A stretch of 64,000 nucleotides of DNA, from the UHGV virus genome UHGV-0293664. One strand, 5' to 3'. The notes under the pieces are model-generated. The model made no database searches. It was not told the origin of the DNA and saw nothing but the letters and a program-made list of their open reading frames with translations. This DNA is from a virus. Every line of letters starts with the position of its first letter. Position 1 is the first letter of the stretch. Made by a program: the position numbers and the translations under genes. Positions 3,895 through 49,700 of this stretch are shown here, in pieces.

Positions 3895-3992
3895 TATTGT
3901 TGACCTTGTAATTAAGCGAAAGCCGGAAGCAGAACCGGATTATCAAATGTTACAGTCGTCATCGCCGACTAGCAACATGGTCAACATACTGA

Positions 3993-4089
3993 GCTAGGTA
4001 AGCCCTTTGGCAAGGGCGAGGATTTTTAATCCTGAAAATAGACGAGGTAGTCGTTGAATACATAGGTGGTTCGATTCCATCACCTAGCA
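3993..4089 (+). tRNA. aberrant 97-nt tRNA-like gene (possible anticodon TTT; isotype unresolved; may be a pseudogene)
   Basis: Perfect 7-bp acceptor stem gctaggt/acctagc, canonical D-arm gccc-tttggcaa-gggc and T-arm ggtgg-ttcgatt-ccatc, but about 30 extra nt between anticodon and T arms and no encoded CCA. Confidence 0.4.
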
Positions 4090-4096
4090 CCTTTTT

Positions 4097-4172
4097 GCTG
4101 ATGTAGCACAATTGGTAGTGCAATTGATTTGTAATCAATAGGTTGCAGGTTCGAGTCCTGCTATCAGCACCA
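4097..4172 (+). tRNA. tRNA-Thr (anticodon TGT)
   Basis: Acceptor gctgatg/tatcagc, anticodon stem attga/tcaat with loop tttgtaa, T-arm gcagg-ttcgagt-cctgc, encoded CCA. Confidence 0.75.
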
Positions 4173-4173
4173 T

Positions 4174-4248
4174 GGCCCTGTAGCTGGAAGGTTCAAGCAA
4201 GCGACTCATAATCGCCAGACGGTGGTTCAATTCCACCCAGGGCCACCA
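4174..4248 (+). tRNA. tRNA with CAT anticodon (Met, or Ile if lysidine-modified)
   Basis: Perfect acceptor ggccctg/cagggcc, anticodon loop ctcataa, T-arm ggtgg-ttcaatt-ccacc, encoded CCA; D-stem and first anticodon-stem pair are imperfect. Confidence 0.6.
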
Positions 4249-4259
4249 AATAATAAATA

Positions 4260-4336
4260 CTCCGCGTAGCTCAGCTTGGTAGAGCGCCTGATTTGGGATC
4301 AGGAGGTCGAGTGTTCGAATCACTCCGTGGAGACCA
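4260..4336 (+). tRNA. tRNA-Pro (anticodon TGG)
   Basis: Acceptor ctccgcg/cgtggag, D-arm gctc-agcttggtag-agcg, anticodon stem cctga/tcagg with loop tttggga (G37), T-arm gagtg-ttcgaat-cactc, encoded CCA. Confidence 0.75.
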
Positions 4337-4383
4337 CTTTCAGTTATACTTTAAACATATACAAACAAAAGGAACCTTTAAAA

Positions 4384-4653
4384 ATGTATACACTTAAAAT
4401 TGTAGAGCGTGTAAATCCAACCCATACCGTAGATTTTCGTGACGATTTCAATCCTCTGGCTGTAAATCTTCGAGAGTCATATCATGAACTCAGCTGCGAT
4501 GCAGTGGTGGTCTTTTTTGAAGACAACTCTGAAGGGGCGGTAGCTTGTGTTGTTGATAGTGAGCAGAAGTTTTATATTTACAGAGATGTAGATGCATACT
4601 TGATGAATGAAAATGCAGTTACTGTTAGAATCATCCACCGAGTGCCTCGATAA
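4384..4653 (+). CDS. hypothetical small protein
   Basis: ATG at 4384 after RBS-like AAAGGAA; the longer track ORF 4276..4653 overlaps tRNA-Pro and was trimmed. Confidence 0.4.
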   Translation: MYTLKIVERVNPTHTVDFRDDFNPLAVNLRESYHELSCDAVVVFFEDNSEGAVACVVDSEQKFYIYRDVDAYLMNENAVTVRIIHRVPR

Positions 4654-4705
4654 GTATTAGTCTCCTTTTAGTTAGTTTCGATCTATTTAGGTTACTCAAT
4701 TTTAA

Positions 4706-4741
4706 CCCGCCCCGTTAGCTGTATAGCTGCGGGGTTTTTTC
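4706..4741 (+). terminator. intrinsic terminator
   Basis: Stem ccccg/cgggg with internal palindromic loop, followed by TTTTTTCGTTT. Confidence 0.5.
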
Positions 4742-4758
4742 GTTTCTGGAGCCTTAAA

Positions 4759-5157
4759 ATGATTTCAGTTTTAACATGGCTGAGCAGGTATAGAGGGGTC
4801 ATAAAAGGTTTAGTTTTTGCAGCTGCGATAGGTACAGCTTATCTTGGGGCCGTATATTGGTTTAACTCTAAGATTAATGAAGCCTACCAAGAGGGTGTAT
4901 CAGCAACAGAGTTAAAGTGGGAACGGATCCTTGATCAGCAACAAAAGCAGGCCGACAAAATTAAAATGGGCCACGCAGAGGAGGTTAAAAACCTTGAAAA
5001 ATCCCTTTCTGATCTGCAGGATAAATTAAATATGGCTGAGAAGGCAGGTAAAGAAAAGCAGATTATCTACCTCCAGTCACCTGAGGGCAAGAAGTCAACA
5101 CTTCCTGATCAGCTTATAGATATTTATAATGAGAGTATCAATCAGGAGGATCAATGA
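4759..5157 (+). CDS. i-spanin (Rz-like inner-membrane spanin)
   Basis: N-terminal hydrophobic segment GLVFAAAIGTAYLGAVYWF followed by a charged coiled-coil region; next gene overlaps its 3' end. Confidence 0.5.
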   Translation: MISVLTWLSRYRGVIKGLVFAAAIGTAYLGAVYWFNSKINEAYQEGVSATELKWERILDQQQKQADKIKMGHAEEVKNLEKSLSDLQDKLNMAEKAGKEKQIIYLQSPEGKKSTLPDQLIDIYNESINQEDQ

Positions 5158-5866: not shown

Positions 5867-6749
5867 TAATTTGTAGCTCTCGTAAAACCTCCCTAATTGC
5901 GGGGAAATCTTTATTATTGACACCACCAACCTGTCATGGTAACATGATAGAGGCTTCGAAGAGAGATCGAAGGTATGGTAACAGTGTGTTAATTTAGATA
6001 ATCCGCAGCGAAGCATCCGAAAGGATGAACGTTCAACGACTAGTCGAAAGACGTAGAATCAAGCGATTCGAAACGGGAGGGTGAATGTGTAATACTAAAA
6101 AATGTATGGATTGCCAAAGAGTTCTACCTCTTGATGATTTCTTTTTATCATCTAAGAGCAAGGATGGATACTCCGGTACATGCAAGGAATGCTATATGTA
6201 CTACAGGAAGAATGGATCTCGTAGAAACAAAAATATGGTTAAGAGAGATGATGCAGCATCTTTTATTCAAGACTTACTGAAGAAAGGTGAGCTTTTTGAA
6301 TGTAAATCTTGTCATGAAAGTATGCTTGCTGATAGTTTTTACACAAAACGTGACTATGGTAAAGTGTATCTGGTTACGAACAGGTGTAAGATGTGTGAAA
6401 AGTTTTATCAGATTGAGAAGAAATTTCACATAACAAAAGATGAATACTATCGTTTACTCTCAGATCAAGATCATAAGTGTGCCATTTGTAGAATATCTCT
6501 TGATGAGTATAGGACGCAAGGGTACAGAGATTTCTTTTGTGTTGATCATGACCATAAAACTGGTGCTGTAAGAGGGTTGCTTTGTGATAAATGCAACAGA
6601 GCTTTAGGTTTCTTCCAAGAGGATGAGGAAACCATTCTTAGAGCAGCAGAGTATTTGCACATTCATAAGATATAGTCTGGTCTGCATGGAGACATGCAGC
6701 TGCCTGAAAATGGCGGGGCAAGACTAGCGACCTTGCCCGAACATAAACG
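5867..6749 (+). mobile_element. putative group I-type self-splicing intron carrying an HNH homing endonuclease gene
   Basis: Separates the two terminase halves, which are in different frames; exon 1 ends in T and the proposed intron ends in G; hairpins with GAAA tetraloops (catcc-gaaa-ggatg, tcgaaaga); boundaries approximate. Confidence 0.5.
6085..6675 (+). CDS. HNH homing endonuclease (endonuclease VII-like HNH family)
   Basis: Motif CVDHDHKTGAVRGLLCDKCNRALG plus several CxxC zinc-ligand pairs; lies inside the terminase-interrupting insertion. Confidence 0.8.
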   Translation: MCNTKKCMDCQRVLPLDDFFLSSKSKDGYSGTCKECYMYYRKNGSRRNKNMVKRDDAASFIQDLLKKGELFECKSCHESMLADSFYTKRDYGKVYLVTNRCKMCEKFYQIEKKFHITKDEYYRLLSDQDHKCAICRISLDEYRTQGYRDFFCVDHDHKTGAVRGLLCDKCNRALGFFQEDEETILRAAEYLHIHKI

Positions 6750-7871
6750 ACGCAGTTCGAATGGGAGCAGATAGACTATCTGATGTCTCGTCTGCGATCT
6801 CAGTCAAAGTATCCATCAAGAATGGTTATCAGCTGTAACCCCGATTCAGAACACATGCTTGCCAAACTGGTTAGGTGGTGGTTGGACGATGAAGGGTATC
6901 CAGATCCGGAGAAATGCGGTAAGAAAAGATATTTTATCCGACGCGACGGTGAATTTATCTGGGGAGACTCTAAAGAAGAGTTGATAGAGAAATACACCAC
7001 GGTTAACGGACTGGGTGTAGAGATCAAGCCGAGACCGTTGTCATTCTCGTTTATAGGCGCAACAATCTTCGATAATCCTGTCTGTTTGAGAGACAACCCA
7101 GAATACCTTGCTTTCCTTGAAGGTCTACCCGAGCTTGAAAAAGCTCAGCTTCTTCATGGCAACTGGTTTGCCAAACCTGAGGGTGCGAACTATTTCCAAA
7201 GATCTTTCCTTCGTGATGCCGATAGAGTACCACTTGGATCAGTATCTTGCAGGGCATGGGATAAAGCTGGAACTGAAAGAACTTCAGGTAATAAATTCCC
7301 TGACTTTACCGCCAGTGTTAAGGTAAGTAAAGATAGCGACGGCTTTTATTACCTGTCCGGTTATTATTGTCCTGAGAACGTGGATGACGGGAGGTATTCC
7401 ACAGGTCTGGAAGGTAAGTTCTGTAAAAAGGCTGGTGAACGAGATGTGATCATCAGGAAACAGGCACAGTTTGATGGTGATGATTGTATAATCGTATTCT
7501 CTGTGGACCCCGGTCAGGCAGGTAAGAGTGAGTTCTTAACTTCCTCCAGATCCTTACTCGCCGAAGGGTTTAGGGTTGAAGAAGACCCAATGCCTTCCAA
7601 CAAATCTAAACTAACAAGGTTCTCACCTTTTGCCAATCTTGCCCAACAAGGAATGGTGAGGATTGTAAAATCCAGTTTTCATCCTGATACTCTGGAAGCA
7701 TTTCTGACTGAACTTGAAAAATTCAACGGGGAAAGATCAACATTTAACAGAAAAGACGACTGGGCCGACTGTGTAGCTTCTGCGATTAATTTCCTGGAGA
7801 AAGAGGAGGTAGCACTTCCTTGTGTTATTCCATCAATCTCATCACCTTCTATGTTCAAGCGTTTTATCTAA
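6750..7871 (+). CDS. terL: terminase large subunit, exon 2 (coupling and nuclease C-terminal part)
   Basis: Frame open from 6747; proposed junction gives ...MVCFDEG|TQFEWEQIDYLMSRLR...; SRMVISCNPDSEH coupling-like motif, acidic nuclease-like motifs FSVDPGQAGK and DDWADCVASAINF. Confidence 0.7.
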   Translation, partial: TQFEWEQIDYLMSRLRSQSKYPSRMVISCNPDSEHMLAKLVRWWLDDEGYPDPEKCGKKRYFIRRDGEFIWGDSKEELIEKYTTVNGLGVEIKPRPLSFSFIGATIFDNPVCLRDNPEYLAFLEGLPELEKAQLLHGNWFAKPEGANYFQRSFLRDADRVPLGSVSCRAWDKAGTERTSGNKFPDFTASVKVSKDSDGFYYLSGYYCPENVDDGRYSTGLEGKFCKKAGERDVIIRKQAQFDGDDCIIVFSVDPGQAGKSEFLTSSRSLLAEGFRVEEDPMPSNKSKLTRFSPFANLAQQGMVRIVKSSFHPDTLEAFLTELEKFNGERSTFNRKDDWADCVASAINFLEKEEVALPCVIPSISSPSMFKRFI

Positions 7872-31745: not shown

Positions 31746-31774
31746 TTGCGTATTAACTCAAAATCTGGTAAAAT
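31746..31774 (+). promoter_or_regulatory. sigma70-type promoter with extended -10 (TTGCGT-N17-TGgTAAAAT)
   Basis: TTGCGT 31746-31751; TG 31766-31767; TAAAAT 31769-31774. Confidence 0.5.
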
Positions 31775-37213: not shown

Positions 37214-37220
37214 CAGTAAA

Positions 37221-37248
37221 GCCCCGCTTCGGCGGGGTTTATTTTTAT
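37221..37248 (+). terminator. intrinsic terminator with UUCG tetraloop
   Basis: gccccgc-ttcg-gcggggt followed by ttatttttat. Confidence 0.7.
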
Positions 37249-37255
37249 GCTCAGA

Positions 37256-37284
37256 TTGACTATTGTTACAAAATTTGGTAAAAT
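37256..37284 (+). promoter_or_regulatory. sigma70-type promoter with extended -10 (TTGACT-N17-TGgTAAAAT)
   Basis: TTGACT 37256-37261; TG 37276-37277; TAAAAT 37279-37284. Confidence 0.6.
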
Positions 37285-37317: not shown

Positions 37318-38808
37318 GTGGCTAAGTATGGATTGACAGAGGCTGGTTTCGTTATACCAACCCTAAATGACCTAATCGTTGAAACTAAGCAAAGCCTGAT
37401 CCGTGCTTTTGGCGAAAACTTCAACGTACAGAGTAACTCCGTTGCAGATAAGCTGACCACTATCTTCAACGAGCGAGAGTATCAACTTATTCTTATGGCA
37501 GCATCTGTATACGCATCACAGACGCTGTATGGGGCAGAAGGTATTTACCTGGATGAGCTTCTTGGAAGACAAGGTATTTACCGAAGAGGCCGTTCTAAAT
37601 CATCAGGTACCTGCCAGTTGACAATCAACACAACTGTGCCGTACAATATGATTTACGATTCCAAAACTTACACACTGGACAGTGGGAACTTTGTTCTTAG
37701 CAATGACGTGCAGGTAGCGGGAAATCTTATTGCTCATAGGATAAACGCTCCAGATCTAAGAATTGGGAAATACAACTTTCAAATTACCAACCAGACAGAT
37801 GGAAGTATCAAAACAAAAAGTCTGGTTTTAACAGATAAGGCTCTGGACTCTTCTGATCTGCCAAGCTTTTACGGAGAGATTAAGCAGTTCATTGTCGATA
37901 ATACAACCCTGTTGAACGACGATTTGATTCAGATCGATATGTTGACAGGAACGTTGTGGATAGGGTACAATTCGAATCTTGATCAAGTTGGACTTAATAG
38001 TAGAGTAGATTTCAGGGTATCCCCGATTGTAGGGGAAAGAACTATTACCCTGGATGTTATCGCTAACGAGGCTGGTGAGCTGTCAAGAGAGGCAGAAACC
38101 GTGACAACAATGTCGCCTACTCCCAGCGGATTTATCAAACTCACCAACCGAGAAAGATTCAATGAGGGTAGGGATGTTGAGAAAGACTCAGAGTATCGCT
38201 TAAGAGCTTCCAGCACAAAACAGTTAACATCTAAGGCTACCCGTCCTGCAATCCTTAGCGCTGTAAGCGAGGTGAAAGGTGTTGAGAAAGTGAGAGTGTT
38301 CTCCAACAACACCGATAAAACTGATGCTAAAGGTATACCTCCTTACAAGTTCCAAGTGGTTGTGTTTGGTGGTGCAACGGAAGACATTTGCCAAGCACTT
38401 TACCAAACTATAGCCTGCACGAACAGGACTTATGGTAATATTTTCTACGATGTCACTACATCTGACGGTCAAACTGAAAGAATTTATTACTCCAAGGCAA
38501 ATACCTACCGCCTAGATGTAAGAATTACCTACTCCGGTGCTGCGCTTTCCACAACCGAAAAAGATGCCATTACAGAGGCCCTTTTGCATGTTGTTAACGG
38601 ACTAGATGTTGCAGATACGTTGTACAATATCCAATTGGTCGGTGCTGCATCTGCTGCTGTGTCGATAGGCAGATTTAATAGACTGGTAATTCAAGTTAAA
38701 CCAGTAGGAGCTTCTGATGAAGCTTACACTACAAACGATATTGTTGCGAACATGACCGAGGTGTTTGACCTCGACGAAAGTAATATAACTTTCCAACAAA
38801 CTATTTAA
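37318..38808 (+). CDS. baseplate/tail structural protein (possibly baseplate J-like)
   Basis: 496-aa ORF with GTG start after RBS GGAGGAG; by size and context only. Confidence 0.3.
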   Translation: MAKYGLTEAGFVIPTLNDLIVETKQSLIRAFGENFNVQSNSVADKLTTIFNEREYQLILMAASVYASQTLYGAEGIYLDELLGRQGIYRRGRSKSSGTCQLTINTTVPYNMIYDSKTYTLDSGNFVLSNDVQVAGNLIAHRINAPDLRIGKYNFQITNQTDGSIKTKSLVLTDKALDSSDLPSFYGEIKQFIVDNTTLLNDDLIQIDMLTGTLWIGYNSNLDQVGLNSRVDFRVSPIVGERTITLDVIANEAGELSREAETVTTMSPTPSGFIKLTNRERFNEGRDVEKDSEYRLRASSTKQLTSKATRPAILSAVSEVKGVEKVRVFSNNTDKTDAKGIPPYKFQVVVFGGATEDICQALYQTIACTNRTYGNIFYDVTTSDGQTERIYYSKANTYRLDVRITYSGAALSTTEKDAITEALLHVVNGLDVADTLYNIQLVGAASAAVSIGRFNRLVIQVKPVGASDEAYTTNDIVANMTEVFDLDESNITFQQTI

Positions 38809-38819
38809 GGCGGCGAGAT

Positions 38820-39506
38820 ATGGCAGAGATTAAGTCGGATGTTAACCACATCCACACTCTGCCAGATTTTGTTCAGGGAGGTCTTGACTACCTGCCTGGA
38901 GATTTTCTGGCTGAGAAGGTTAATTTAGTCACATTCTTAACCGTGTACCTTAAAAGGTTGGAGGATGTTGATAAGATGCTGGTAGGTTTGGCTGAAGGAA
39001 GATTGCTTAACAATGCCAGCGGAAGATACCTTGACGAGGTTGGTAATCAACTTGGTATTCTTAGGAATGGACTTTCAGATGCTGATTTTCGTGCCACACT
39101 AATTATTCAGCAGGCCGCAGCATCAAGGGGCGGGACTCGCGAAGATGTCATCTCCACCTTGCGACAATTGTTCGGAAGAGACAATTTCGATACGTGGAAA
39201 GGAGACAACTTCCGGTTTGACATAAATATTAGAAAAACTTGCTTTGACATATTGCAGTCTATCGATCAGATCTTAGATATGCTACCATTGCCTTGTCATT
39301 TGCGTCTTACAGAATCGCAAGGGCAAGCTTTTGGTTTTGAAGGGGACTCTACAGCTCTTGGCTTCGGATCAGTGTGGGAAGAAAACCAATTCGGAGTTGG
39401 TGGGCTGGCTACTTTGCTGTATGTTCCTGACGTAAGACCTGATTGGGACACCACAACCATTTATTGTGAAAGTATTACAGTAAACGCAACTAGACAGGAG
39501 GGTTAA
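38820..39506 (+). CDS. hypothetical baseplate/tail protein
   Basis: 228-aa ORF coupled to the flanking genes. Confidence 0.3.
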   Translation: MAEIKSDVNHIHTLPDFVQGGLDYLPGDFLAEKVNLVTFLTVYLKRLEDVDKMLVGLAEGRLLNNASGRYLDEVGNQLGILRNGLSDADFRATLIIQQAAASRGGTREDVISTLRQLFGRDNFDTWKGDNFRFDINIRKTCFDILQSIDQILDMLPLPCHLRLTESQGQAFGFEGDSTALGFGSVWEENQFGVGGLATLLYVPDVRPDWDTTTIYCESITVNATRQEG

Positions 39507-41578
39507 TGGCAACAGCTGTTTTTAAACCTTACCGTGATTACTCTACAATGGCTGCACAGTTTCATTACCGCACAGTTCAGGATACTGCCGTTCCTGGTAG
39601 GGATTATGATCATGTTGAGGGCGATGTAACTATCCCAGTCGGGGCAACCAGTATTGAGATTCCGGTGGAAATTGTTGACAAATTGCCCAACAGATTGCCA
39701 AGAAGCTTCTTTATGGAGTTTTCATCAAAATCTCAAGGGGTGATGATTGGGACACAAAGGGCGAAATGTACAATAGTTTCAGATGAGAATCTTGACAGGA
39801 TATCTTGGGATACTGTCGAGGAGAGAATGTTCCACCCAAGATATTGGGTTACAAATACTCAGCAGACTGAAAGTACCTGTATTGTTGCAGATAACAACTG
39901 TTGTATTAACCGTTTAGTGTCAAGAACATATGGAGGTGTGGCTGGGTGCATTTGGGAAACAGTTGACAAGTATGACCATTTCGGTATTGGGTTTGATGAT
40001 CACTATGAGATGAGAAACACCAAGCTTTGGTTCAGAATGTCAATAACCAACGCCAGCAACTTCTCCACTCCTGAAAAGATGATTATGACTGTAGACCTTG
40101 TTGATGGCACAATCATCTATGTTCCTTTAGCTCAATATGCTGTCAGCATCTCAGAGGATAAGAATGTTGCAGAAATTCATATTGATTTTGAGGACTGCGT
40201 CGGGATGGACCAGAACAACAACATGATGGGTGTTGATCCTCGGCAGGTGAGAAGGATTTTAATACCGCTCATGCCTAAAGACTGGGTAAGTAATAGCACA
40301 GACCCGAGAACGGAAAATGTAGAGTGTGAGTTGCGCCTAGATTTGCTTCAGCCAGACACAGGCTGGAAAATGATGCAACTTAACAATATTCAGGTGAGAG
40401 AGCACGACGTTGGGATCTGCACCGCATATGACGATATGTGGAACGTATCTCCTTTAAGGGTGTTGAACAATATCAAGCGTCTGGGCTATACCGGAACCAT
40501 AAACCATTATGTTGGTATGAGTCATTATTATGACTACACATGGTCAGGAACCCAATGGTCTATAAACAGAACAGGAGCGCTAAACGCTGCAGCTTATAAA
40601 TGGCATGATGATTTTATGTACAATGCCAAACGACATAACTTCGACGTTATGCAATCTGTAAGTTTTGAGCTTTTCAGCGATGCCTGCCCGTTGGAATGGA
40701 CCCAAAGAGACTGGAACGATAACTATGCTAAAACAGGCTATACGCCTTGTAGTTACCTCCTATCTCCAACCATTGAAGAGGGTATGAATTTCCTTACTGC
40801 AGTATTTAAGAATTTTGCATCAGCCGCTATGAGAAACAATCTGCCAGTGATTATGCAGATTGGTGAACCGTGGTGGTGGTTCAATACCGATACTCGTAAG
40901 CCTTGTATTTATGACTACCCTACAAAACAGGCGTTTTATGATGAGACTGGTGAATATGCACTAGACATTGGGACTATTGACGATCCTAAAACTGGCGGTG
41001 TTTATGACAAGTATGTAGCATTTTGTCGTGGTAAGCTTGGCGCTCGTATTGCGGCTATTTCAAAGGCAATAAAGGCACACGCTGCATCAGCTCAGATGAC
41101 AGCTCTGCTGTTTTTCCCAACCATTATGGAAACCGAGCTTACGCAAAAGCTGAACCTTGCTGACCAATATAAAAAAGAAGCAGGTGCTCTTGATTTCTTC
41201 TGCACTGAGTGCTACGATTGGGTGATGCAGGGAGGTATTGAAAAGGCAAAAGAGTCTGTAAACATACCTATCGTTAAGTTAGGTTGGCAACCGTCTGAAA
41301 TACAATACCTTGCAGGGTTCGTTCCTAGCAAAGAGCTTGCTCCGGTATATGGCTACGACCCAACCAGGAATTACCAAGAATTTTTATGGAGATGTATCTG
41401 CGGAAACATGGCAACCATAGAGTATAGATACCCTGAGGTAAAACAGTATGTGTGGGCATACCCGCAAGTAATGTCTGACAGCATCACTGTTACCGCTAGG
41501 GATTCTACCGTGCTTCATATAGGGCAGGTTGCTCTGAAAGGGTATGTAGAAGATGTTGTCCCGCCAGACTTCTCATAA
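39506..41578 (+). CDS. tail protein with N-terminal Calx-beta-like domain
   Basis: N-terminal RDYDHVEGDVTIPVGATSIEIPVEIVDK resembles the Calx-beta motif; 690 aa, Trp-rich C-terminal part of unknown function. Confidence 0.35.
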   Translation: MATAVFKPYRDYSTMAAQFHYRTVQDTAVPGRDYDHVEGDVTIPVGATSIEIPVEIVDKLPNRLPRSFFMEFSSKSQGVMIGTQRAKCTIVSDENLDRISWDTVEERMFHPRYWVTNTQQTESTCIVADNNCCINRLVSRTYGGVAGCIWETVDKYDHFGIGFDDHYEMRNTKLWFRMSITNASNFSTPEKMIMTVDLVDGTIIYVPLAQYAVSISEDKNVAEIHIDFEDCVGMDQNNNMMGVDPRQVRRILIPLMPKDWVSNSTDPRTENVECELRLDLLQPDTGWKMMQLNNIQVREHDVGICTAYDDMWNVSPLRVLNNIKRLGYTGTINHYVGMSHYYDYTWSGTQWSINRTGALNAAAYKWHDDFMYNAKRHNFDVMQSVSFELFSDACPLEWTQRDWNDNYAKTGYTPCSYLLSPTIEEGMNFLTAVFKNFASAAMRNNLPVIMQIGEPWWWFNTDTRKPCIYDYPTKQAFYDETGEYALDIGTIDDPKTGGVYDKYVAFCRGKLGARIAAISKAIKAHAASAQMTALLFFPTIMETELTQKLNLADQYKKEAGALDFFCTECYDWVMQGGIEKAKESVNIPIVKLGWQPSEIQYLAGFVPSKELAPVYGYDPTRNYQEFLWRCICGNMATIEYRYPEVKQYVWAYPQVMSDSITVTARDSTVLHIGQVALKGYVEDVVPPDFS

Positions 41579-41590
41579 TCAGGAGATAAA

Positions 41591-42631
41591 ATGTCAAAAC
41601 CTAGTTTTCCATTAGAGATTTGGGCAGAGGAGGATCAGGTTCTGCCTAACACCCACAGACAGAACAGGCTACGCCCGATTGATGATTTGTGGAGAAAAGG
41701 TTGGGATCTTGGTCAAAAGCCATCCTGTGAAGAACTTAACTATATTTTCAATATGCTCGGGACTTGGGCAAAATACATTGCTGACGAGCAGATCCCCGCT
41801 CAAGAAGGCCGCTATCTGGTACGTGATAATAACTTGAGTGATCTTTTAAACATCCCTGTTGCCCGTAGAAACCTTGGAATTATTACTAAGGAAGAGGCAG
41901 ACGCCAGGTATGTAAAAGTTACAGGTGATACAATGACAGGCCCATTGGGTTTGCAACGTATCAACTTTAAAGCTGCCGAGACAGATAAGGCTTGGATAGA
42001 GACAACTATTGGCCCAGATAAGACAACTCTTGACTTTGGGTTAAGTGATAATATTGGGGCGTTCGATGATGGTGGCACATCTACAGTGGATGCGTTCCGT
42101 TGGAGATTCCAGCCAACTCAGCCGGACATTAATCCAGAGTTCACTTTAATGTACCTGAACGCAATCACGGCTAATCGTGCGTTGTTGAAAGTGGTGGGCA
42201 ATGTTGAAGTTGTTGATAACATGCGGTGTAATAACCTCACCATTAGTAGCACAGCAACATTCACTAACTGCAATGTAGCCAGTCAGTTGACAGCTGGGTC
42301 AGTATATGTCAATGGCGGTGCAAGTTGTGATAGTATGGTTGTAAGAAGCCAGCATTGTGTTGTCGGTAACAGAAATGTGGTGCGCTCTGTGAATGGAGTG
42401 ACGGCTAACGGCAACGGCGATGTAACGATCACCATCCCACAGACAGGTGTACAGGATATCAGAATCGGTGCAAGACTTGTTGATGGCGTTTCTGAATCTC
42501 CAATCCGCAACGGATACGTTGTCACAGGTTGGCATTTTGGTGACAAAAAAGAGATGCGTGGTTCAACTTACTGGGCAGGACCTTTACAAAAACTTGTAAA
42601 TGGTCAATGGATCACTGTTAATTATGCATAG
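41591..42631 (+). CDS. tail fibre protein, paralog 1
   Basis: 346 aa; paralogous along its whole length to 43646..44689; followed by a Tfa-like gene. Confidence 0.5.
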   Translation: MSKPSFPLEIWAEEDQVLPNTHRQNRLRPIDDLWRKGWDLGQKPSCEELNYIFNMLGTWAKYIADEQIPAQEGRYLVRDNNLSDLLNIPVARRNLGIITKEEADARYVKVTGDTMTGPLGLQRINFKAAETDKAWIETTIGPDKTTLDFGLSDNIGAFDDGGTSTVDAFRWRFQPTQPDINPEFTLMYLNAITANRALLKVVGNVEVVDNMRCNNLTISSTATFTNCNVASQLTAGSVYVNGGASCDSMVVRSQHCVVGNRNVVRSVNGVTANGNGDVTITIPQTGVQDIRIGARLVDGVSESPIRNGYVVTGWHFGDKKEMRGSTYWAGPLQKLVNGQWITVNYA

Positions 42632-42645
42632 ATCGGAGGACTAGC

Positions 42646-43230
42646 ATGAAAATACTTCAAGAGTTTAAACTTTACCAACCGGGATCTGGCGAATACCACG
42701 CCAACAAGGAAACCAAGGAGCTGACCCCTCAAGAGGTTGAGGACTACACCGCATACACTGGGTATTTTTTACGTAATGATGATGGCGATTGGTATGTGCA
42801 GTCACGAACATTACGACAAGAAAATCCGGGTTGTATCTTCCTACTTGTTGACGAGAAAGGAATTCTTAAGACATCTACAGAAGAACCTGATGCCTTATGG
42901 CCTGCTCCAGGTCTTCGTGTGGTTATCGCCAAAAAAGAAGAGGTACCAGAAAACATTATGCTTCACCACGACGCTTTGCGTTTAGTTGGTGATGAATTTG
43001 TCACAGATAATGAATTCTTTGTTCAACAGGCAGAGGGTGTCATAGAGACAGAACTTGCTTGGGCTACTGCTAGACTTGGTGCCTATCAAGACATGATTGA
43101 CCTTGAATATGATCTTACTGATGACCAGAAACGTAACATCAGAGATTTGAAAATGTACAGGGTAAAACTTCTTGAAATAGATACATCTAAAGCCCCTGAC
43201 ATTTTCTTCCCGGAGCGACCTACCCTCTAA
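42646..43230 (+). CDS. tail fibre assembly protein (Tfa-like chaperone)
   Basis: C-terminal LLEIDTSKAPDIFFPERP resembles the conserved Tfa C-terminal motif; sits directly downstream of a fibre gene. Confidence 0.55.
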   Translation: MKILQEFKLYQPGSGEYHANKETKELTPQEVEDYTAYTGYFLRNDDGDWYVQSRTLRQENPGCIFLLVDEKGILKTSTEEPDALWPAPGLRVVIAKKEEVPENIMLHHDALRLVGDEFVTDNEFFVQQAEGVIETELAWATARLGAYQDMIDLEYDLTDDQKRNIRDLKMYRVKLLEIDTSKAPDIFFPERPTL

Positions 43231-43241
43231 GAGGAGGTGTT

Positions 43242-43556
43242 GTGGAGTTGGATTTGGCGGCATTGTACGGTATCTGTATGGGTACCGTTGTCCCGATCTG
43301 TGTATGGGCTTTCAACCAGTGGCACACCAAATGGAAAGGCATTTCCCAGAGGTTGGATGAACTGGAGAAAGACCTCATCTTAGTGAAAAATAGTATGGTT
43401 ACAAAAGATAGACTTGATTCCGTTATCGAGACCCGGTTAAGCAAGCTAGAGGCCGATATTAACGACCTTAAGCAGGATGTCAGGACAGATGTCTCCGGCA
43501 TCCGAGCTGATGTACAAAAGATTTTGCACATGCTCGTAGAGCATAGTAAAAGGTAA
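43242..43556 (+). CDS. small membrane-anchored coiled-coil protein
   Basis: GTG start; N-terminal hydrophobic segment then heptad-like LDELEKDL...LSKLEADINDLKQDV. Confidence 0.3.
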   Translation: MELDLAALYGICMGTVVPICVWAFNQWHTKWKGISQRLDELEKDLILVKNSMVTKDRLDSVIETRLSKLEADINDLKQDVRTDVSGIRADVQKILHMLVEHSKR

Positions 43557-43565
43557 ACAAAGGTC

Positions 43566-43597
43566 AGAACGGAAAGGACTCCGTTCTTGCATTTTGT
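43566..43597 (+). terminator. intrinsic terminator
   Basis: agaacgg-aaaggact-ccgttct followed by tgcattttgtt. Confidence 0.55.
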
Positions 43598-43615
43598 TCT
43601 CTAAAGTGTTAAAAT
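43587..43615 (+). promoter_or_regulatory. sigma70-type promoter with extended -10 (TTGCAT-N17-TGtTAAAAT)
   Basis: TTGCAT 43587-43592; TG 43607-43608; TAAAAT 43610-43615. Confidence 0.5.
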
Positions 43616-43645
43616 AGTCCTAAGGAATTTTCTCAGGAGAACGCG

Positions 43646-44689
43646 ATGACTAAACCAGTTATCCCTCTTGATATTTGGGCCAATCAGGATGTTGTGCTTG
43701 AAAATACGGGAGAGTTGAATAAATCTCAACCAAAAAAAGAAGAGAGATTGAAAGGTTGGGATATGACACAAAGAATGGCATGTGAAGTTGTTAACTTTGA
43801 ACTTCACATGCTTTCTGCGTGGTTGAAGCATTTAACAGAAGATGTTGTCCCAGGATGGGATAATAGATTCTTAAGGGTCACTAATAACCTAGCAGACGTT
43901 CCAGACAAAGCTGCTGCACGTCAAGTTCTCAATGTATACTCACCTGAAGAAATGGACGATCTATATGTTGACAAGTCTGGAGACATAATGACTCAGACTC
44001 AAACTTTAGGTCTTCAAAGAATCGAGTTTGCATCTGCGTCAACAGACAGTGCGGCAATATACACCACCATAACTCCAGACAAGACGACGATGGATTTCTG
44101 GATTATGGACAACATCGGTGGTGCTGACGGCACAGACCTTGATGATCCTTCTCACCAAATAGACGGGTTCCGTTGGAGATTTCAACCTTCTGGTGGGCAG
44201 CCTGTGTTTTCGGCTATGAAGCTCAATGCTATAACTGCCAACCGTGCAAGACTGGCTATCCAAGGAAATCTTGAATGTAACGATGCAAAAAGTTCCTCTG
44301 CAAATGCCAATGCGGTCACGATACCAAGAGCCACTGTTAACGGACAACAATCCTGCGGAAGCGCTCAAATAGGTGGAAGAGTTGATTGTAACGATGAAAC
44401 CGTTAGGGGCCAATATGCAACCGTTGGTGGAAGAAACGTGGTCCGCAGGGTAAATGGTAACAGCGCAGACGGTAGTGGTAACCTTACTATCCCTATGCCT
44501 AGCAGAGGGGTTGATGATGTAAGGATAGCGAACCGTTTCAAAACCACCTACAGAGAGTCAAGAGTCTACCCTGGACATGTGATGTGCTCTGGTAACTACG
44601 CCTATAAACACCCTTATCAAGGTGATTACTGGACAGGTGCTATCCAAAAACTTGTAAATGGTCAATGGATCACTATATCTTATGCTTAA
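43646..44689 (+). CDS. tail fibre protein, paralog 2
   Basis: 347 aa; shares the N-terminal P(L/I)(E/D)IWA..D.VL.NT pattern and C-terminal QKLVNGQWIT(V/I).YA with 41591..42631. Confidence 0.5.
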   Translation: MTKPVIPLDIWANQDVVLENTGELNKSQPKKEERLKGWDMTQRMACEVVNFELHMLSAWLKHLTEDVVPGWDNRFLRVTNNLADVPDKAAARQVLNVYSPEEMDDLYVDKSGDIMTQTQTLGLQRIEFASASTDSAAIYTTITPDKTTMDFWIMDNIGGADGTDLDDPSHQIDGFRWRFQPSGGQPVFSAMKLNAITANRARLAIQGNLECNDAKSSSANANAVTIPRATVNGQQSCGSAQIGGRVDCNDETVRGQYATVGGRNVVRRVNGNSADGSGNLTIPMPSRGVDDVRIANRFKTTYRESRVYPGHVMCSGNYAYKHPYQGDYWTGAIQKLVNGQWITISYA

Positions 44690-44700
44690 AAAGAGGGTAA

Positions 44701-44967
44701 ATGAAACTAACTCAGTTTTTATGGGGACTGGTTGCGGCATCTGATGACCCTACGAAAGTGTCCCAATCTAAGCTATGGTCGAACATAGGTATGGCGGTGA
44801 TGACTGGGGTGTTTATTCATATGGGGTATAATGATACGCTTCCTGAATGGTATGCGTGGATATACGCGCCTTCAGTAGCTTGCCCCCAGCTTATTAGCAA
44901 ATTCATCTCGCTCCGGTGGGGTTGCCAGCACCCTGACCACGTTAAAAACGAAGAGCAAAAAGCTTAA
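44701..44967 (+). CDS. small hydrophobic protein downstream of fibre paralog 2
   Basis: 88-aa ORF with two hydrophobic segments. Confidence 0.3.
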   Translation: MKLTQFLWGLVAASDDPTKVSQSKLWSNIGMAVMTGVFIHMGYNDTLPEWYAWIYAPSVACPQLISKFISLRWGCQHPDHVKNEEQKA

Positions 44968-44976
44968 GGAGAAATC

Positions 44977-46722
44977 ATGGCGCAAGACATGACAAGCTTT
45001 GAGCAGGCGGTAGATCAAGTAATTGTTGATTCTGAACGTTTGCACCTGATTGTCAACGGTAACGCTGTGGATGAAGTTGTCGTAGAGGATGGGACCACCA
45101 TCCCTACGGTACGAAAAGCCATGCTTGACACCCTTTATTTTAAAACGCCACCGATCCCTTGGGCGTATGGTGCATCCACAACAGTTTTTAACCAGCTGTA
45201 CGAGTTTAAGGGGGACACAGGCCCTCAGTGGTGGTACGCTCCCGCAGCATCAAAATCTAACCCGGTTAGAATGCCAGCAGATCCTTCACAATCTCCAAAC
45301 TGGAGATTATATACAGATTCTGCAGTAATGGCAAAATACTACGCAAAACTTAACAGTCCGAGGTTCGAAGGTGACCCGCGAGTACCGACACCTCCAATGG
45401 ACGACAAATCCGAGTCTATAGCAAACACAGAGTTTGTTGTTGACTACGTGGATAGCATATTTGAAGCCATGGAGGGGATGAAAGTTACTGTAGGGTCTTT
45501 GGTGGTAAAAGGTCTTACAGAACTTGCTAACACCATAGTTGGTGGCACACTCACCCTACATGGGCCTGTTAATGGAGCAGATTCTACTGCACGCTTCAGG
45601 AACCTAATCCTCACGGCAAACACTTCTACACTTACTTTTGCGTGGAGCGATCCTAAGCATGCAGACTGGAGAAGTACAGAGCTGCAGCCTCATGAAGTGT
45701 CCACCCACAGGATTATAGCTGACACTATAACTTCTGGGAAACCAGTGGCTAATAATAACGATGTGCATTTTGATGGTCTAGGTAATAACTTTTTTGACTA
45801 CGTGTACATTCGTGGTAATGCCATGAAGGCAGCAACCGAACCGACATTGCAGGTAGATGGAACCACCAGGGTTAAGAACCTTGAGGTGACAGGTACTGTT
45901 ACAGGAATAACCTACTCTGTCGATGGCACCATGATCTACCCTAGCTATATTGAAAGCACGGGGGACGCATTAATAAATGGTGATTTAGAAGTTGGCGGAT
46001 CTGTAGTTATTCGAGGTACAGCCTCTATCCAAAACATAGCTCTGAATACCTTAAGAGTCAATGAGCGTGCAACTTTTGAAGGAGAAGGGCTTGCAGCCAA
46101 TAAAGGTACAATTACCGAGCTGACCACCACCACTCTAACTGCAACAACTGCAAACTCTGAAAACTGCAACGTTACCAGAAACTTGCAGGTAAATGGGGAT
46201 GTTAGTTTAAACGCAGCAGGTACTGGCACCACCTACCTGCACAACCTTGAAATATCCGGCACAGTGACTGGGTGGCTGCCAGACTTCTCTAATGTCAACT
46301 TTGTTTGTAATGGCATTAACTCTAGCGGTAAGATAACCACCTCTCAAGGAATTGAAGCTGGTAAAACCATTACTGCCCCTACTTTCCACGCAGGGAAGGT
46401 AGATTTTGATTTAGAGGAGGTTGACGCGTCCAGTGGGACATGGACACCTAACGGGCAGGCCAGTATGTATGTTGTCCACGCGAAAGGGGATTTTACAATA
46501 GGACAGTGGCCTGGGACATCAGCGGAAGATAAACCTTATCCATTCACTGCAGTTATCTATGTAATTCAGGATGCTGTAGGTCACAACGTGACTTTGCACG
46601 ATAAGTATGCCATCCTGTCGGCAACACCTGTTATTAACAACAAGGCTAACAGTGTTACCTTGCTGCAATTAACGTATTGTGGTGTTGGTGATATTGTAGA
46701 CGTAGTAATTGCACAACGTTAA
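44977..46722 (+). CDS. tail fibre/spike-like protein
   Basis: 581 aa, Thr/Gly/Asn-rich repetitive composition typical of fibre shafts; RBS AAGGAGA. Confidence 0.4.
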   Translation: MAQDMTSFEQAVDQVIVDSERLHLIVNGNAVDEVVVEDGTTIPTVRKAMLDTLYFKTPPIPWAYGASTTVFNQLYEFKGDTGPQWWYAPAASKSNPVRMPADPSQSPNWRLYTDSAVMAKYYAKLNSPRFEGDPRVPTPPMDDKSESIANTEFVVDYVDSIFEAMEGMKVTVGSLVVKGLTELANTIVGGTLTLHGPVNGADSTARFRNLILTANTSTLTFAWSDPKHADWRSTELQPHEVSTHRIIADTITSGKPVANNNDVHFDGLGNNFFDYVYIRGNAMKAATEPTLQVDGTTRVKNLEVTGTVTGITYSVDGTMIYPSYIESTGDALINGDLEVGGSVVIRGTASIQNIALNTLRVNERATFEGEGLAANKGTITELTTTTLTATTANSENCNVTRNLQVNGDVSLNAAGTGTTYLHNLEISGTVTGWLPDFSNVNFVCNGINSSGKITTSQGIEAGKTITAPTFHAGKVDFDLEEVDASSGTWTPNGQASMYVVHAKGDFTIGQWPGTSAEDKPYPFTAVIYVIQDAVGHNVTLHDKYAILSATPVINNKANSVTLLQLTYCGVGDIVDVVIAQR

Positions 46723-46730
46723 TATATCTA

Positions 46731-46757
46731 ACCGCTCCTGACGGGGCGGTTTTCTTA
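46731..46757 (+). terminator. intrinsic terminator
   Basis: accgctcc-tgac-ggggcggt followed by tttctt. Confidence 0.55.
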
Positions 46758-46770
46758 TCTGGAGAACACA

Positions 46771-49700
46771 ATGCTTCCAATCCCTTTGCTAAAACTTGGT
46801 CGTCATTTCCTCGATAAGAGGGGTGGAATTAAGGAACTTGCTGTTCTGTCATACCCAATAGACAACAGTGATGGCACAAGCACTACAGTATCCTATGTAA
46901 ATAGTTTAGCTATACTTTTTGATGATGGTCAACTCAATATCACGGGCTATAACAGGTTCGGAGAGTGCCGCACTGGGGGTCTTGACACGATAAACTACCC
47001 CAACGAGGCTGCCTGGAACGTTGATCATGTGTGGAGAGCAGACCGTGCGTTTGTGATCCGAACTTTTGATAACCAGTTTTTCTACATCGGCTGCACTGCA
47101 GGGCTTATTGGGTCTGATGCTGCAGGCGGTAATGATGTTTGTGTAAGAGAGTGGACACCTCTTCCTGAACAGATCGTTAAAGGGTTGCACCTTGACACCC
47201 ACCCAGAGCGCCTTATTGAAGTAATGGGCGGTATTAACAACACTATCTGGGTTATTGCAGAGGCAGAAGGCACTGGCATACTTAACCTGTATGGATCTGG
47301 TAACAACACCTACGGATCTTTGCATGTAGATAAAAATCAGCATGCAACCCCTGTAAAGATCGGTGAGACATCGGAAAATCCTGAAACAGGCCCTTGGAAA
47401 AACCCAAGCATCAACTGCGAGGTGCATGACAACTCTGTTATTTTCGGTGGTCCTAGAGGTTTCTGGATTGCTGGATACGACTTTCTGAGAAATAACAGTA
47501 GAAACGATCTTGTTTGGCCTCCTGTGCAGATTACTCGTAACGATTTGAGGGGCATTCCTGCAGATGAGGAGTGGAAAGGGTTTATGTGTGGTCCTAACGG
47601 GGCAATAATTGCCACACAGAGGATGCATAGACCCGATGACCAGCAGCTTGTTAACGTATTCTACGGGCAAGACGTTTGGGGAGATGACACATGGCGTTCC
47701 TTAAATATCACCTACACCCATGAGGTAATAATGGCTCGTGGGTACGGCACAAGTGGCATTTTCTTCAATAATGGCACTAAGCAGTATCGTGGATTCTCTC
47801 GCAACTTGTGTAATGATATTGGCGCACAATCTGCAAACAATAGCCCTAGGGCCAATTTTATCCACTATCAAGCTCTTGCTACAGCTAAATATGTTGAGCA
47901 ACGCCTGCCAGTTAGCTGGACAGAGAGTGTTTATTTCCAAGGCATCCACAGGGAAGGTTTCTTAGGAACCTTTACTGTTGTTAATGGTAAACTTTGGTGG
48001 TCAGGCATCCCAAGGGGGAGTTTTGCAGGCTCTAACAACCTGTTTGGCGGCAGACTTAATAGTCAGGGGTTCACAGAGGTTCCTGAGAATTGGTATAAAA
48101 ATGTCCCAGTAGACAGTTGGGATGTTGATGATATTTTCGACGTTAACGGTGTTAGCAGCGTTAGCAATATTTACATTGGTGACACGGTCAAGATGAAATT
48201 GAAGCCTCAGCCAGAAGGGGCTACGTTCATTATTGACAAGATTGAACTGGTAAATGCTGCAGGCACGGTTGTTACAGATGCAAATTACCAATTCTCCACC
48301 AACTGGAACCACGGCGGGGCCAATGAAGTTGTTGTTACCCAGTATAACAGAAATGTTAACAGACGTGGCCTGTACTCTGTAAAAATAACTTATCATGACA
48401 AGCATGGCACAGGCAGAACCCATACGACAAGGACTTTGAACTGGAACACCATAGTTCCTGCGTATCCGTCTAACGGCAAGTGGCATACCGTTGGTAGAAA
48501 CAAGCAGTTCCATGTTAACGATACTGTATACTTTGGGCTGAATGGTACTCAGCCTGCAGTAGAAGGTGATACATCATATATGGTCCGACTCCACAGAATG
48601 GATGCTGGATCAGTCACTTACGATGTTACCCAAGAGATTTATGATCAGAGAAGAAATACCTACAACAACTTGGTGCAGACACAGGCCGTATGGGAGTTCA
48701 ACCCTAACGGCAGAGGTGGTAAAATGTTGCAGGTTAACGAGCAAAACGGAACGTCGTTAACTGTCCACAAACACCCAGACCCTTGGCCTGATCCTGGAAA
48801 ACCTCACCCAGGCGCTCGTACGCTGAAAATTGTCAGCCATGATGTAGGATATTTCGGAATACGCTGGGAAGCTACAGTAAGGTATGCCGACGGGACAACA
48901 AACAACATAGGGATTACACTTGGTGGCACCAGTGAAGATAACTCGCTGAAAATTGCCTACACTCCTAGAGGTATATCTATTGACAATATGGATGTTGTTC
49001 GCAATGGTTACGGCGATGTGAATGTCAAAGTTACTCTTGGCGAACATCTTGGTGGGGAAAGGATCATCATGTATGCTTTTGATCATGACCCGCGTACCAA
49101 CGGAACTTATGCAAATCAGGCATGGAGTTACCTGATAAATGCACCTGGGCCGAATACTAAAGAGTTCTACTACGGCATGAAGCGAGATGTGTGCAAGAAA
49201 ACAGGAACACATGACTGGATTGCTATCTGCGTTAAAGATGAGCGCACAGCTTGGGATGAGCCTGTTAACAGATGGTTCATAGGTATTCCTACCAGAAGTG
49301 ATAAGTATGTCGCAGAATATATTGTATGCATGGGCGGTACCAACCTGAACATGTGTTGGAACGAGGATGCAAACAAATACTCTGATTATGACTATATGAG
49401 GGACTACTCTTGTAATCAGTGGTTTAACCAATCAACAGGATACCCTCCACGTCAGGCGAGAGTAAACCCTGCAATCTTCACAGATACGCAGGTTTTCTTG
49501 ACAAAACAGGCCAACAAGGTTCAGACCTTCAAGAATAAATACGATCCTAACAAGTGGTTCTACAACTGTTACGGCGCATTTTTCTGGGGACCTGGTGAGT
49601 TACCTGGTGGAGGATCTTGCTTGAATGAGGCAACTTACGCCAGTGACTACATCATGGGGCAGGTCAAGAAGTATAAGATAATCCCCGGTCCTGAGACTCT

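Follow-up and report, generated by a model that had tools for sequence, protein, structure and literature searches.

Why does a phage carry two short tail fibres where its sister genera manage with one, and where on the particle does the second fibre sit? This question is raised by positions 41,591–44,967 of the virus genome UHGV-0293664, analysed here as a stretch of 64,000 nucleotides (nt), which we call the window. The locus contains two fibre genes (STF1 and STF2, for short tail fibres 1 and 2), a tail fibre assembly chaperone gene (Tfa) and two small genes (m104 and m88), and is of the type found in phage rV5. Few broad-host-range coliphages are isolated as often as those of this group, which are candidates for use in therapy and in biocontrol. 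Irreversible adsorption to the core of the lipopolysaccharide (LPS) is probably determined by their short tail fibres. Four features provide handles on the question: the slot occupied by STF2, the divergent docking domain of its product, the near-identical fibre tips of one divergent lineage, and the class of the promoter upstream of STF2.

We consider it reasonably probable that STF1 and STF2 are two anciently duplicated fibres of the Mu GpS type, which are co-expressed late, rely on a single Tfa and provide constitutive dual recognition rather than a regulated switch. This reading builds on gene identity, paralogy, selection, the conservation of a promoter and a hairpin, and ancestral synteny, each taken from the present analysis or from the literature. 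The paralogy, the promoter and the idea of two LPS receptors have already been published (2013, 2021), and the locus is no new kind of system.

Identity of the locus

A megablast search with positions 39,500–47,000 of the window matched 119 phage records, of which 111 cover at least 80% of the query. The closest relatives are the BASEL phage EmilHeitz and other Vequintavirus (rV5-like) coliphages, with ~97.5% DNA identity. The 3377-bp locus itself is conserved across its entire length in 114 records, at 94.5–97.6% DNA identity, and its layout is invariant in ~116 genomes. Gene order and sizes (346, 194, 104, 347, and 88 aa) are the same as in the annotated rV5 and BASEL Vequintavirus genomes, and in the rV5 gene table the five genes correspond to gp33, gp32, gp31, gp30, and gp29. 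These matches identify the locus as the short-tail-fibre region of a Vequintavirus coliphage, equivalent to rV5 genes 33 to 29.

All five genes are encoded on the + strand. STF1 (41,591–42,631; 346 aa; rV5 gp33) and STF2 (43,646–44,689; 347 aa; rV5 gp30) both belong to phrog_4465, with E=2e-171 and E=1e-166, respectively. Tfa (42,646–43,230; 194 aa; rV5 gp32; phrog_136) and m104 (43,242–43,556; 104 aa, GTG start; rV5 gp31; phrog_5345, a family of unknown function) lie between them, and m88 (44,701–44,967; 88 aa; rV5 gp29; phrog_1322) follows STF2. The BASEL annotation reads, in order, lateral tail fibre (690 aa), short tail fibre, chaperone, hypothetical protein, short tail fibre, hypothetical protein, and lateral tail fibre, a stretch that corresponds to rV5 genes 34 down to 28. 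Nothing substantive sets the locus apart from rV5 genes 33–29 or from its counterpart in the BASEL phages; the window is a further isolate that carries it.

Kropinski et al. 2013 (Virol J 10:76) reported that gp30 (347 aa) and the similar-sized gp33 are 42.3% identical, found HHpred similarity of both proteins to T4 gp12, and raised the possibility that two LPS chemotypes are recognised by the paralogous fibres. Their main text names gp30, gp32, and gp33 among the virion proteins from whole-phage proteomics. Maffei et al. 2021 (PLoS Biol) described Vequintavirinae sensu stricto as having two paralogous short tail fibres and a chaperone, in a locus homologous to that of phi92-like phages and ultimately to Mu GpS/GpU, and found the paralogs to be without notable allelic variation. 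The same study considered the terminal receptor to be probably the first outer-core glucose, based on the genetics of phage LL12. For this rV5-like phage the outer-core glucose Glc I (waaG) is essential, and the dependence on waaP is milder.

Homology, divergence and selection of the two fibres

The two fibres are paralogous from end to end, as an earlier note on this DNA had stated, with 44% identity between the 346 residues of STF1 and the 347 residues of STF2 (E=1e-96). The alignment that the note had asked for places the divergent stretches at approximately residues 51–90, 205–250, and 291–320 (20–35% identity). High identity is seen at residues 1–20, 111–150, 185–200, 251–275, and 321–346. 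Residues 291–320 fall inside the region matching the receptor-binding tip of Mu S, and from residue 286 onwards, the tips of the two proteins share only 45% identity.

At the DNA level, the sole similarity between STF1 and STF2 is found in the last 63 nt, which are 84% identical, and the C-terminal 15 residues of the two proteins are almost the same. This segment includes a 30-nt exact match (42,587–42,616 and 44,645–44,674), encoding QKLVNGQWIT in otherwise diverged genes. The shared 3′ segment might mark a joint left by recombination, or encode a stretch that the chaperone recognises in both fibres.

Searches of the PDB with STF1 returned the N-terminus of the phiTE short tail fibre (E=1.5e-19) and the tip of the Mu tail fibre S (E=4.9e-6), where residues 286–343 of STF1 align to residues 440–501 of 5yvq_A. 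STF2 likewise matches the N-terminus of the phiTE fibre (E=1.9e-8). Searched alone against the PDB, it gives no Mu S match at E≤1, though it is homologous to STF1 across that region. A family profile recovers both the phiTE short-fibre N-terminus (E=3e-29) and the Mu S tip (E=6e-9).

The two paralogs differ in their distance to the single fibres of related genera. The docking domain (residues 1–70) of STF1 is 61–66% identical to Seunavirus and Mydovirus fibres and 50% identical to that of phiTE, against 37–50% and ~40% for STF2. In the neck (residues 71–115), STF2 is the closer of the two to Seunavirus (58–62%, against 44–47% for STF1). Since the STF2 neck is nearer to Seunavirus while the STF1 docking domain is nearer, the paralogs are mosaic.

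The STF1 tip is 56–57% identical to the tips of SalP219 and PaulScherrer. The STF2 tip is confined to Vequintavirus records, with the next match at 43.5%, and STF2 is present in every Vequintavirus record found. In agreement with this, a published Proteinortho analysis (PMC11370258, Table S6) assigns the PVP-SE1 fibre to gp33 and gives gp30 no counterpart. Together, the comparisons identify STF1 as the ortholog of the single short fibre of the sister genera and STF2 as the Vequintavirus-specific copy. At 95% identity or more, STF1 occurs in 116 phage records and the STF2 tip in 116.

For the selection analysis, the locus was aligned from the window and ten relatives, and two more divergent genomes were added to give 13. 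In the set of the window and ten relatives, the ratio of non-synonymous to synonymous substitution rates (dN/dS) is 0.023 for STF1, 0.054 for Tfa, 0.034 for m104, and 0.063 for STF2, and m88 shows zero amino-acid changes among the 11 genomes. The open reading frames (ORFs) of 346 and 347 aa are intact in 13 of 13 genomes, including lineages that are only 70% identical in DNA. In each paralog the tip is the most constrained domain, with a dN/dS of ~0.03 among the 13 genomes. These values point to strong purifying selection on both fibre genes, with neither decaying; a degenerate pseudogene, the state that the earlier note had named as fatal to its proposal, is found in neither place.

That one copy might be a redundant, decaying duplicate is scarcely credible. 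STF2 does evolve ~2–3 times faster than STF1 at non-synonymous positions, but its low dN/dS, its intact reading frame, its own conserved promoter and ribosome-binding site, and its presence in all Vequintavirus records found oppose decay, and the selection analysis effectively refutes this explanation.

The similarity of STF1 and STF2 alleles to those of the window is uncoupled in some relatives: 94.7% and 97.8%, respectively, in one record (L001), and 96.9% and 92.8% in another (L010). This uncoupling indicates recombination between the two fibre genes within the genus.

Ancestral synteny of the chaperone and the small genes

The gene directly downstream of STF1 had been called a Tfa-like assembly chaperone, and its product indeed matches PF02413 (Caudo_TAP) with 42.7 bits against a cut-off of 22.1. 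It is the sole Tfa gene of the locus and is annotated as a tail fiber chaperone in BASEL. STF2 is instead followed by the 88-aa protein, which lacks a Tfa domain. The description of m104 as a small membrane-anchored coiled-coil protein also stands: m104 has one N-terminal hydrophobic segment (approximately residues 3–24), beyond which it forms a charged helix with heptad-like hydrophobic spacing. For the gene after STF2 the earlier description holds in part. An 88-aa gene is present, but its product is only moderately hydrophobic, with a maximal Kyte–Doolittle 19-residue score of 1.05, under the usual transmembrane threshold; the PHROGs family carries the label 'membrane protein'.

The small genes are not distinct partners of the two fibres, as had been proposed, because both the 104-aa and the 88-aa gene are also conserved in the neighbourhood of the fibre in genera that have just one. 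In Seunavirus (GAP31, SalP219) and Mydovirus (BIS47), the order is wedge genes, STF, Tfa, m104, m157, m89, and the next fibre, with tight or overlapping gene junctions. The 157-aa protein encoded by m157 is a polytopic membrane protein. In the phi92-like phage PaulScherrer, the order is STF, Tfa, a 113-aa transmembrane coiled-coil protein, and the next fibre. Homologues of m104 occupy the same position in GAP31, SalP219, BIS47, and PaulScherrer, and the m104 and m88 families extend across Vequintavirinae and relatives, with or without a second fibre.

STF2 occupies the slot of the 157-aa gene of Seunavirus and Mydovirus. A tblastn search of the window found no remnant of that gene (best E ~1). 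Because the small genes are neighbours in single-fibre genera and STF2 lies in the slot of the 157-aa gene, the two 'modules' are a single ancestral cluster into which a second fibre gene has been dropped.

Holin or spanin roles were considered for m104, from its transmembrane segment and coiled coil, and for m88, from its charged C-terminus; no supporting evidence was found for either. A different holin, gp129, has been proposed for rV5 (Kropinski et al. 2013).

The promoter and the hairpin between the fibre genes

The gap between m104 and STF2 (43,557–43,645) is 89 nt long and contains a hairpin followed by a promoter. The extended −10 promoter predicted earlier is present in the sequence. 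It is of a late-class sigma-70 type (43,587–43,616, + strand) and consists of a −35 hexamer, TTGCAT (43,587–43,592), located right after the hairpin, a 17-nt spacer, and TGtTAAAAT (43,607–43,615; TGtTAAAATA with the last base of the element). Kropinski et al. 2013 (Table S4C) list it as the 'putative late promoter' P030 and report the motif TggTAaAAtA eight times upstream of late genes. The P030 sequence, TTGTTCTCTAAAGTGTTAAAATAGTCCTAAGGAATTT, is identical to positions 43,595–43,631 of the window.

The promoter belongs to a recurrent class. The pattern TTG-N17-TGnTAAAAT is found seven times in the window (starting at 2905, 9548, 14,076, 17,597, 31,746, 37,256, and 43,587), all on the + strand, with 0.06 expected. 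The shorter TGnTAAAATA occurs six times, again only on the + strand, with 0.89 expected. Several class sites coincide with the published rV5 promoters P074, P056, P051, P040, and P036. The TTGCAT hexamer, the 17-nt length of the spacer, the TG, and TAAAATA are kept in the lineages of the window and of two divergent contigs (L017 and L018, described below), while the spacer sequence varies. We read this conservation pattern as the footprint of a real promoter.

The same promoter class precedes the operon of STF1. The upstream site (37,256–37,284, + strand; TTGACT-N17-TGgTAAAAT) is equivalent to rV5 P036, is contained in rV5 Table S4, and serves the structural operon from the baseplate gene gp36 through STF1, Tfa, and m104. 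Co-regulation of STF2 with the late genes is the simplest explanation because of this shared class: STF2, though equipped with a promoter of its own, is most likely expressed at the same time as the remaining late genes. Between 37,284 and 43,566 the + strand holds no terminator-like site, and the transcription units are therefore probably gp36 through m104, followed by STF2, m88, and gp28. The second unit is predicted to end at a strong intrinsic terminator (46,730–46,751, + strand; −15.7 kcal/mol), which is t028 of rV5 (Table S4D).

The hairpin upstream of the promoter (43,566–43,587, + strand) consists of an 8-bp stem and a loop, AGAACGGA-AAGGAC-TCCGTTCT, with a folding energy of −12.8 kcal/mol. 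Its stem shows compensatory double changes at four of seven aligned pairs, and 90.5% of cells are paired in a six-sequence alignment. All 500 shuffles scored below the observed covariation, and pairing falls to 19–65% in slid registers. In close relatives one A–T pair is replaced by C–G, and the stem of L018 is AATGAC/GTCATT with the same AAGGAC loop. These compensatory changes, the covariation score and the poor slid registers argue that the hairpin is selected as a structure.

The earlier note had called this element a terminator. The hairpin exists as described, but by appearance it is at best a leaky terminator: it folds less stably than the terminators nearby (−15.7 to −16.6 kcal/mol), and the U-tract that follows is interrupted (UUGCAUUUUG). 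The tail, TTGCATTTTG, has at least five T in eight bases in an interrupted run and doubles as the −35 hexamer. Neither the rV5 terminator list nor the rV5 and BASEL papers include the hairpin as a terminator. On balance, it probably acts as a leaky intrinsic terminator at the end of the upstream operon.

The hairpin might instead be a stabiliser or processing site at the 3′ end of the mRNA, or a protein-binding stem-loop, with the two modules largely co-transcribed from the promoter upstream and P030 acting only as a booster. We regard this as possible but the less probable interpretation. The overlap of the broken U-tract with the −35 hexamer and the folding energy (−12.8 against ~−16 kcal/mol for the neighbours) favour it, as does the loop, whose AAGGA stays constant between lineages with changing stems; the hairpin was not named a terminator by the rV5 authors or by the annotators of phage Murica. 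A terminator is, on the other hand, what the location after a stop codon and before a promoter, the covarying stem, and the T-rich stretch fit, and clear terminators stand before two further promoters of this class as well. We retain the leaky terminator as the working assignment.

The same punctuation, a terminator and then a promoter, recurs at 31,746 and at 37,256, where a strong terminator hairpin (37,219–37,240) stands before the promoter. It appears to be a general feature of the late region and not special to the STF2 module.

Three smaller observations concern this gap. Rfam searches of the intergenic region gave only sub-threshold chance matches, which lie inside the STF2 coding sequence. 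The Murica record (KT001917) has an annotated 'terminator' inside the STF2 coding sequence, corresponding to ~43,778–43,811, and not at the intergenic hairpin. The minimum-energy fold of the window pairs the promoter spacer with the ribosome-binding site of STF2; this pairing is absent from the consensus structure across lineages and was discarded.

In the Seunavirus phages GAP31 (6431–6459 in record L003) and SalP219 (6467–6495 in L004), a match to the promoter pattern is observed at the junction of the 157-aa gene and m89, a position equivalent to that of P030. The −10 element of this site overlaps the annotated start codon of m89, which might reflect a mis-called start or a leaderless transcript.

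Relation to the fibres of Mu, P2, phi92, phiTE and T4

The locus resembles Mu S/U (PDB 5YVQ) and P2 H/G in the Mu S-homologous tip of STF1 and of the family profile, in the Caudo_TAP gene immediately downstream, and in the general arrangement of LPS-core-binding fibres on the baseplate of a contractile tail. It differs from Mu in having one chaperone gene for two fibres and a docking domain of the Vequintavirinae/phiTE type rather than the Mu type, and in that the STF2 tip lacks a sequence match to Mu S.

Another counterpart is found in phi92 gp147 and the phiTE short tail fibre (PDB 9CUY/9MJN), which share a homologous N-terminal docking domain of ~90–110 residues with STF1 and STF2. In both phages the fibre gene comes directly after the wedge genes and, like STF1, is followed by Tfa and a transmembrane coiled-coil protein; both have a single copy of the fibre, unlike the two found here. 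In the phiTE structure (PMC11972413), the homologous residues 3–92 form a joint docking on the wedge. The phi92 structure paper (2026) describes gp147 as fibre III, present in six copies, docked on the wedge protein gp145, pointing downward and proposed to act in irreversible adsorption. The phiTE fibre has 554 residues with a coiled-coil and Ig-like distal part and belongs to a flagellotropic phage, in contrast to the fibres studied here.

With T4 gp12 the likeness is a functional analogy, as an LPS-core-binding short fibre for irreversible adsorption. T4 uses the chaperone gp57A and not a Tfa, and has a single gp12 gene. PDB searches with STF1, STF2, or the family profile gave no sequence match to T4 gp12, and the published HHpred similarity was not reproduced.

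Dual recognition or a switch

In the arrangement that we favour, both fibres would be made together late in infection and both would be folded with the help of the single Tfa, a sharing with which the almost identical C-terminal residues are compatible. They would dock on the baseplate through their homologous N-terminal domains. The C-terminal tips, which differ between the paralogs, would each bind an LPS-core epitope, and the outcome would be constitutive dual recognition with no regulated switch.

The earlier note had offered a switch as one use of the two modules, with the hairpin–promoter pair allowing the second to be expressed independently and the phage to alternate between receptor specificities. 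In its favour, the related system of Mu alternates S/U with S′/U′ by Gin-mediated DNA inversion, and in the window STF1 and STF2 are indeed set apart by a hairpin and a promoter that are both conserved. The data nevertheless make such a switch very improbable. Six further promoters of this class stand before structural operons, the STF1 operon among them, the terminator–promoter punctuation is repeated elsewhere in the late region, and the layout does not vary among the genomes. In contrast to Mu, the fibre genes are fixed in one orientation. Between 41,000 and 45,600, only four pairs of inverted repeats of 14–20 nt (78–93% complementary) are found, none of which brackets either fibre module, and the locus contains no recombinase ORF. 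A Mu-G-like inversion is thus excluded at the level of sequence.

Dual receptor specificity, the other use suggested earlier, remains plausible for the window, where the tips are 45% identical yet each is highly constrained. It is challenged by a divergent lineage. A protein search with STF2 yielded only eight clusters, and the contigs show the two-fibre layout in two further lineages. STF2 in these contigs is 78% identical to that of the window in L018 and L019 and 49% identical in L017. The L017 contig (135 kb; Logan SRR24653873) carries its fibre genes at 3913–4953 and 6001–7065. The tips that they encode share 87% of their residues, with a DNA identity of 77% overall and 53% at third codon positions. 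Recent gene conversion was rejected as the source of this similarity, since identity at third codon positions is only 53%, and the likeness of the L017 tips appears to have been long maintained. What differs constantly between the paralog types in all lineages is the N-terminal domain and the shaft. The m88 homologue of L017 has 118 aa and is extended by a repetitive acidic tail.

The position of STF2 on the particle

Several points weigh against co-expressed fibres with dual recognition. With tips 87% identical, differing receptor specificity cannot explain the keeping of both copies in the L017 lineage. The evidence for gp30 and gp33 in the virion is less strong than it seems at first sight: neither protein carries the flag 'MS evidence' in rV5 Table S3 (Kropinski et al. 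2013), and the mass spectrometry supplement for rV5, which seems limited to a few abundant proteins, is without tryptic peptides of any of the five proteins. Support for their presence in the particle comes from the main text of that paper and from a secondary table. Cryo-electron microscopy (cryo-EM) of Bas49 and Bas54 (EMD-51868, EMD-51869) at 7–9.5 Å revealed one density class for short fibres, in which the paralogs are indistinguishable. The docking domain of STF2 is markedly more divergent than that of STF1, and the two may not use the same docking site. Finally, no Vequintavirus transcriptome was found in the literature searched, and co-expression is read from the promoter class only.

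Some of these points could be explained if STF1 and STF2 were structurally non-equivalent and not chiefly variants for different receptors. STF2 would then dock elsewhere, either on the other copy of the wedge protein within a wedge or on another fibre such as gp28, and each particle would bear short fibres of two separate kinds, or else a fibre that branches. The divergence of the STF2 docking domain, which is observed in all three lineages (37–50% to outgroup fibres, against 61–66% for STF1), speaks for this possibility. STF2 has also lost motifs that STF1 has in common with phiTE, and its docking-domain dN/dS is about twice that of STF1 (0.122 and 0.054). In L017 the paralogs have nearly the same tip and yet distinct N-terminal domains and shafts. 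STF2 and gp28 share one operon, and the RBPseg paper notes an unassigned density on the TC8 fibre head in Bas49 and Bas54.

Other observations argue in the opposite direction. The N-terminal domain of STF2 is still homologous to the wedge-docking domain (E=1.9e-8), the cryo-EM maps of Bas49 and Bas54 show only three fibre types near the baseplate, and single-fibre genera also have a gp28-type fibre without STF2. An AlphaFold2 model of the STF2 monomer, built from a nine-sequence alignment, was unusable (mean pLDDT 31.8, pTM 0.20) and lends the idea no help. Taken together, we regard structural non-equivalence as a tentative, rather unlikely alternative. The more specific proposal that STF2, instead of being another receptor variant at the same six wedge sites, makes up a fibre set of its own is less likely still. 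Its docking site would then be a separate one, such as a second wedge subunit or the head of the co-transcribed gp28, to which the unassigned density in Bas49 and Bas54 is attached. If true, the unit of P030, STF2, m88, and gp28 would amount to an adhesion device complete in itself, perhaps branched, that was added onto the ancestral baseplate.

Neighbouring genes and further observations

Upstream of STF1, positions 39,506–41,578 encode a 690-aa protein with N4 gp65-like NCTSP domains (PF23844, PF23845) and a Calx-beta domain. In Vequintavirus this protein lies between the wedge genes (37,318–38,808 and 38,820–39,506 in the window) and STF1; it is not found at that position in Seunavirus, Mydovirus, or phi92-like phages. 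The literature ties this domain to NGR/ECA glycan recognition.

The last gene of the STF2-headed operon (44,977–46,722, + strand) encodes a 581-aa fibre, rV5 gp28, of phrog_4549. Its homologues in L017–L019 match PF26208 and PF26209, the phiTE_241 N- and C-terminal domains. The next gene, encoding a 1875-aa fibre (rV5 gp27), starts 20 nt after the terminator at 46,730–46,751, with no late-class promoter between them (46,730–46,771), and its expression would need read-through of that terminator. A search of NCBIfam gave 0 matches for the five proteins of the locus or the 157-aa protein of Seunavirus.

Among the records that match the locus, 16–21 (MG0656xx) are titled 'Campylobacter phage', with C. 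jejuni as host. They are ~97% identical to rV5-like coliphages over the locus and are probably mislabelled or contaminant genomes.

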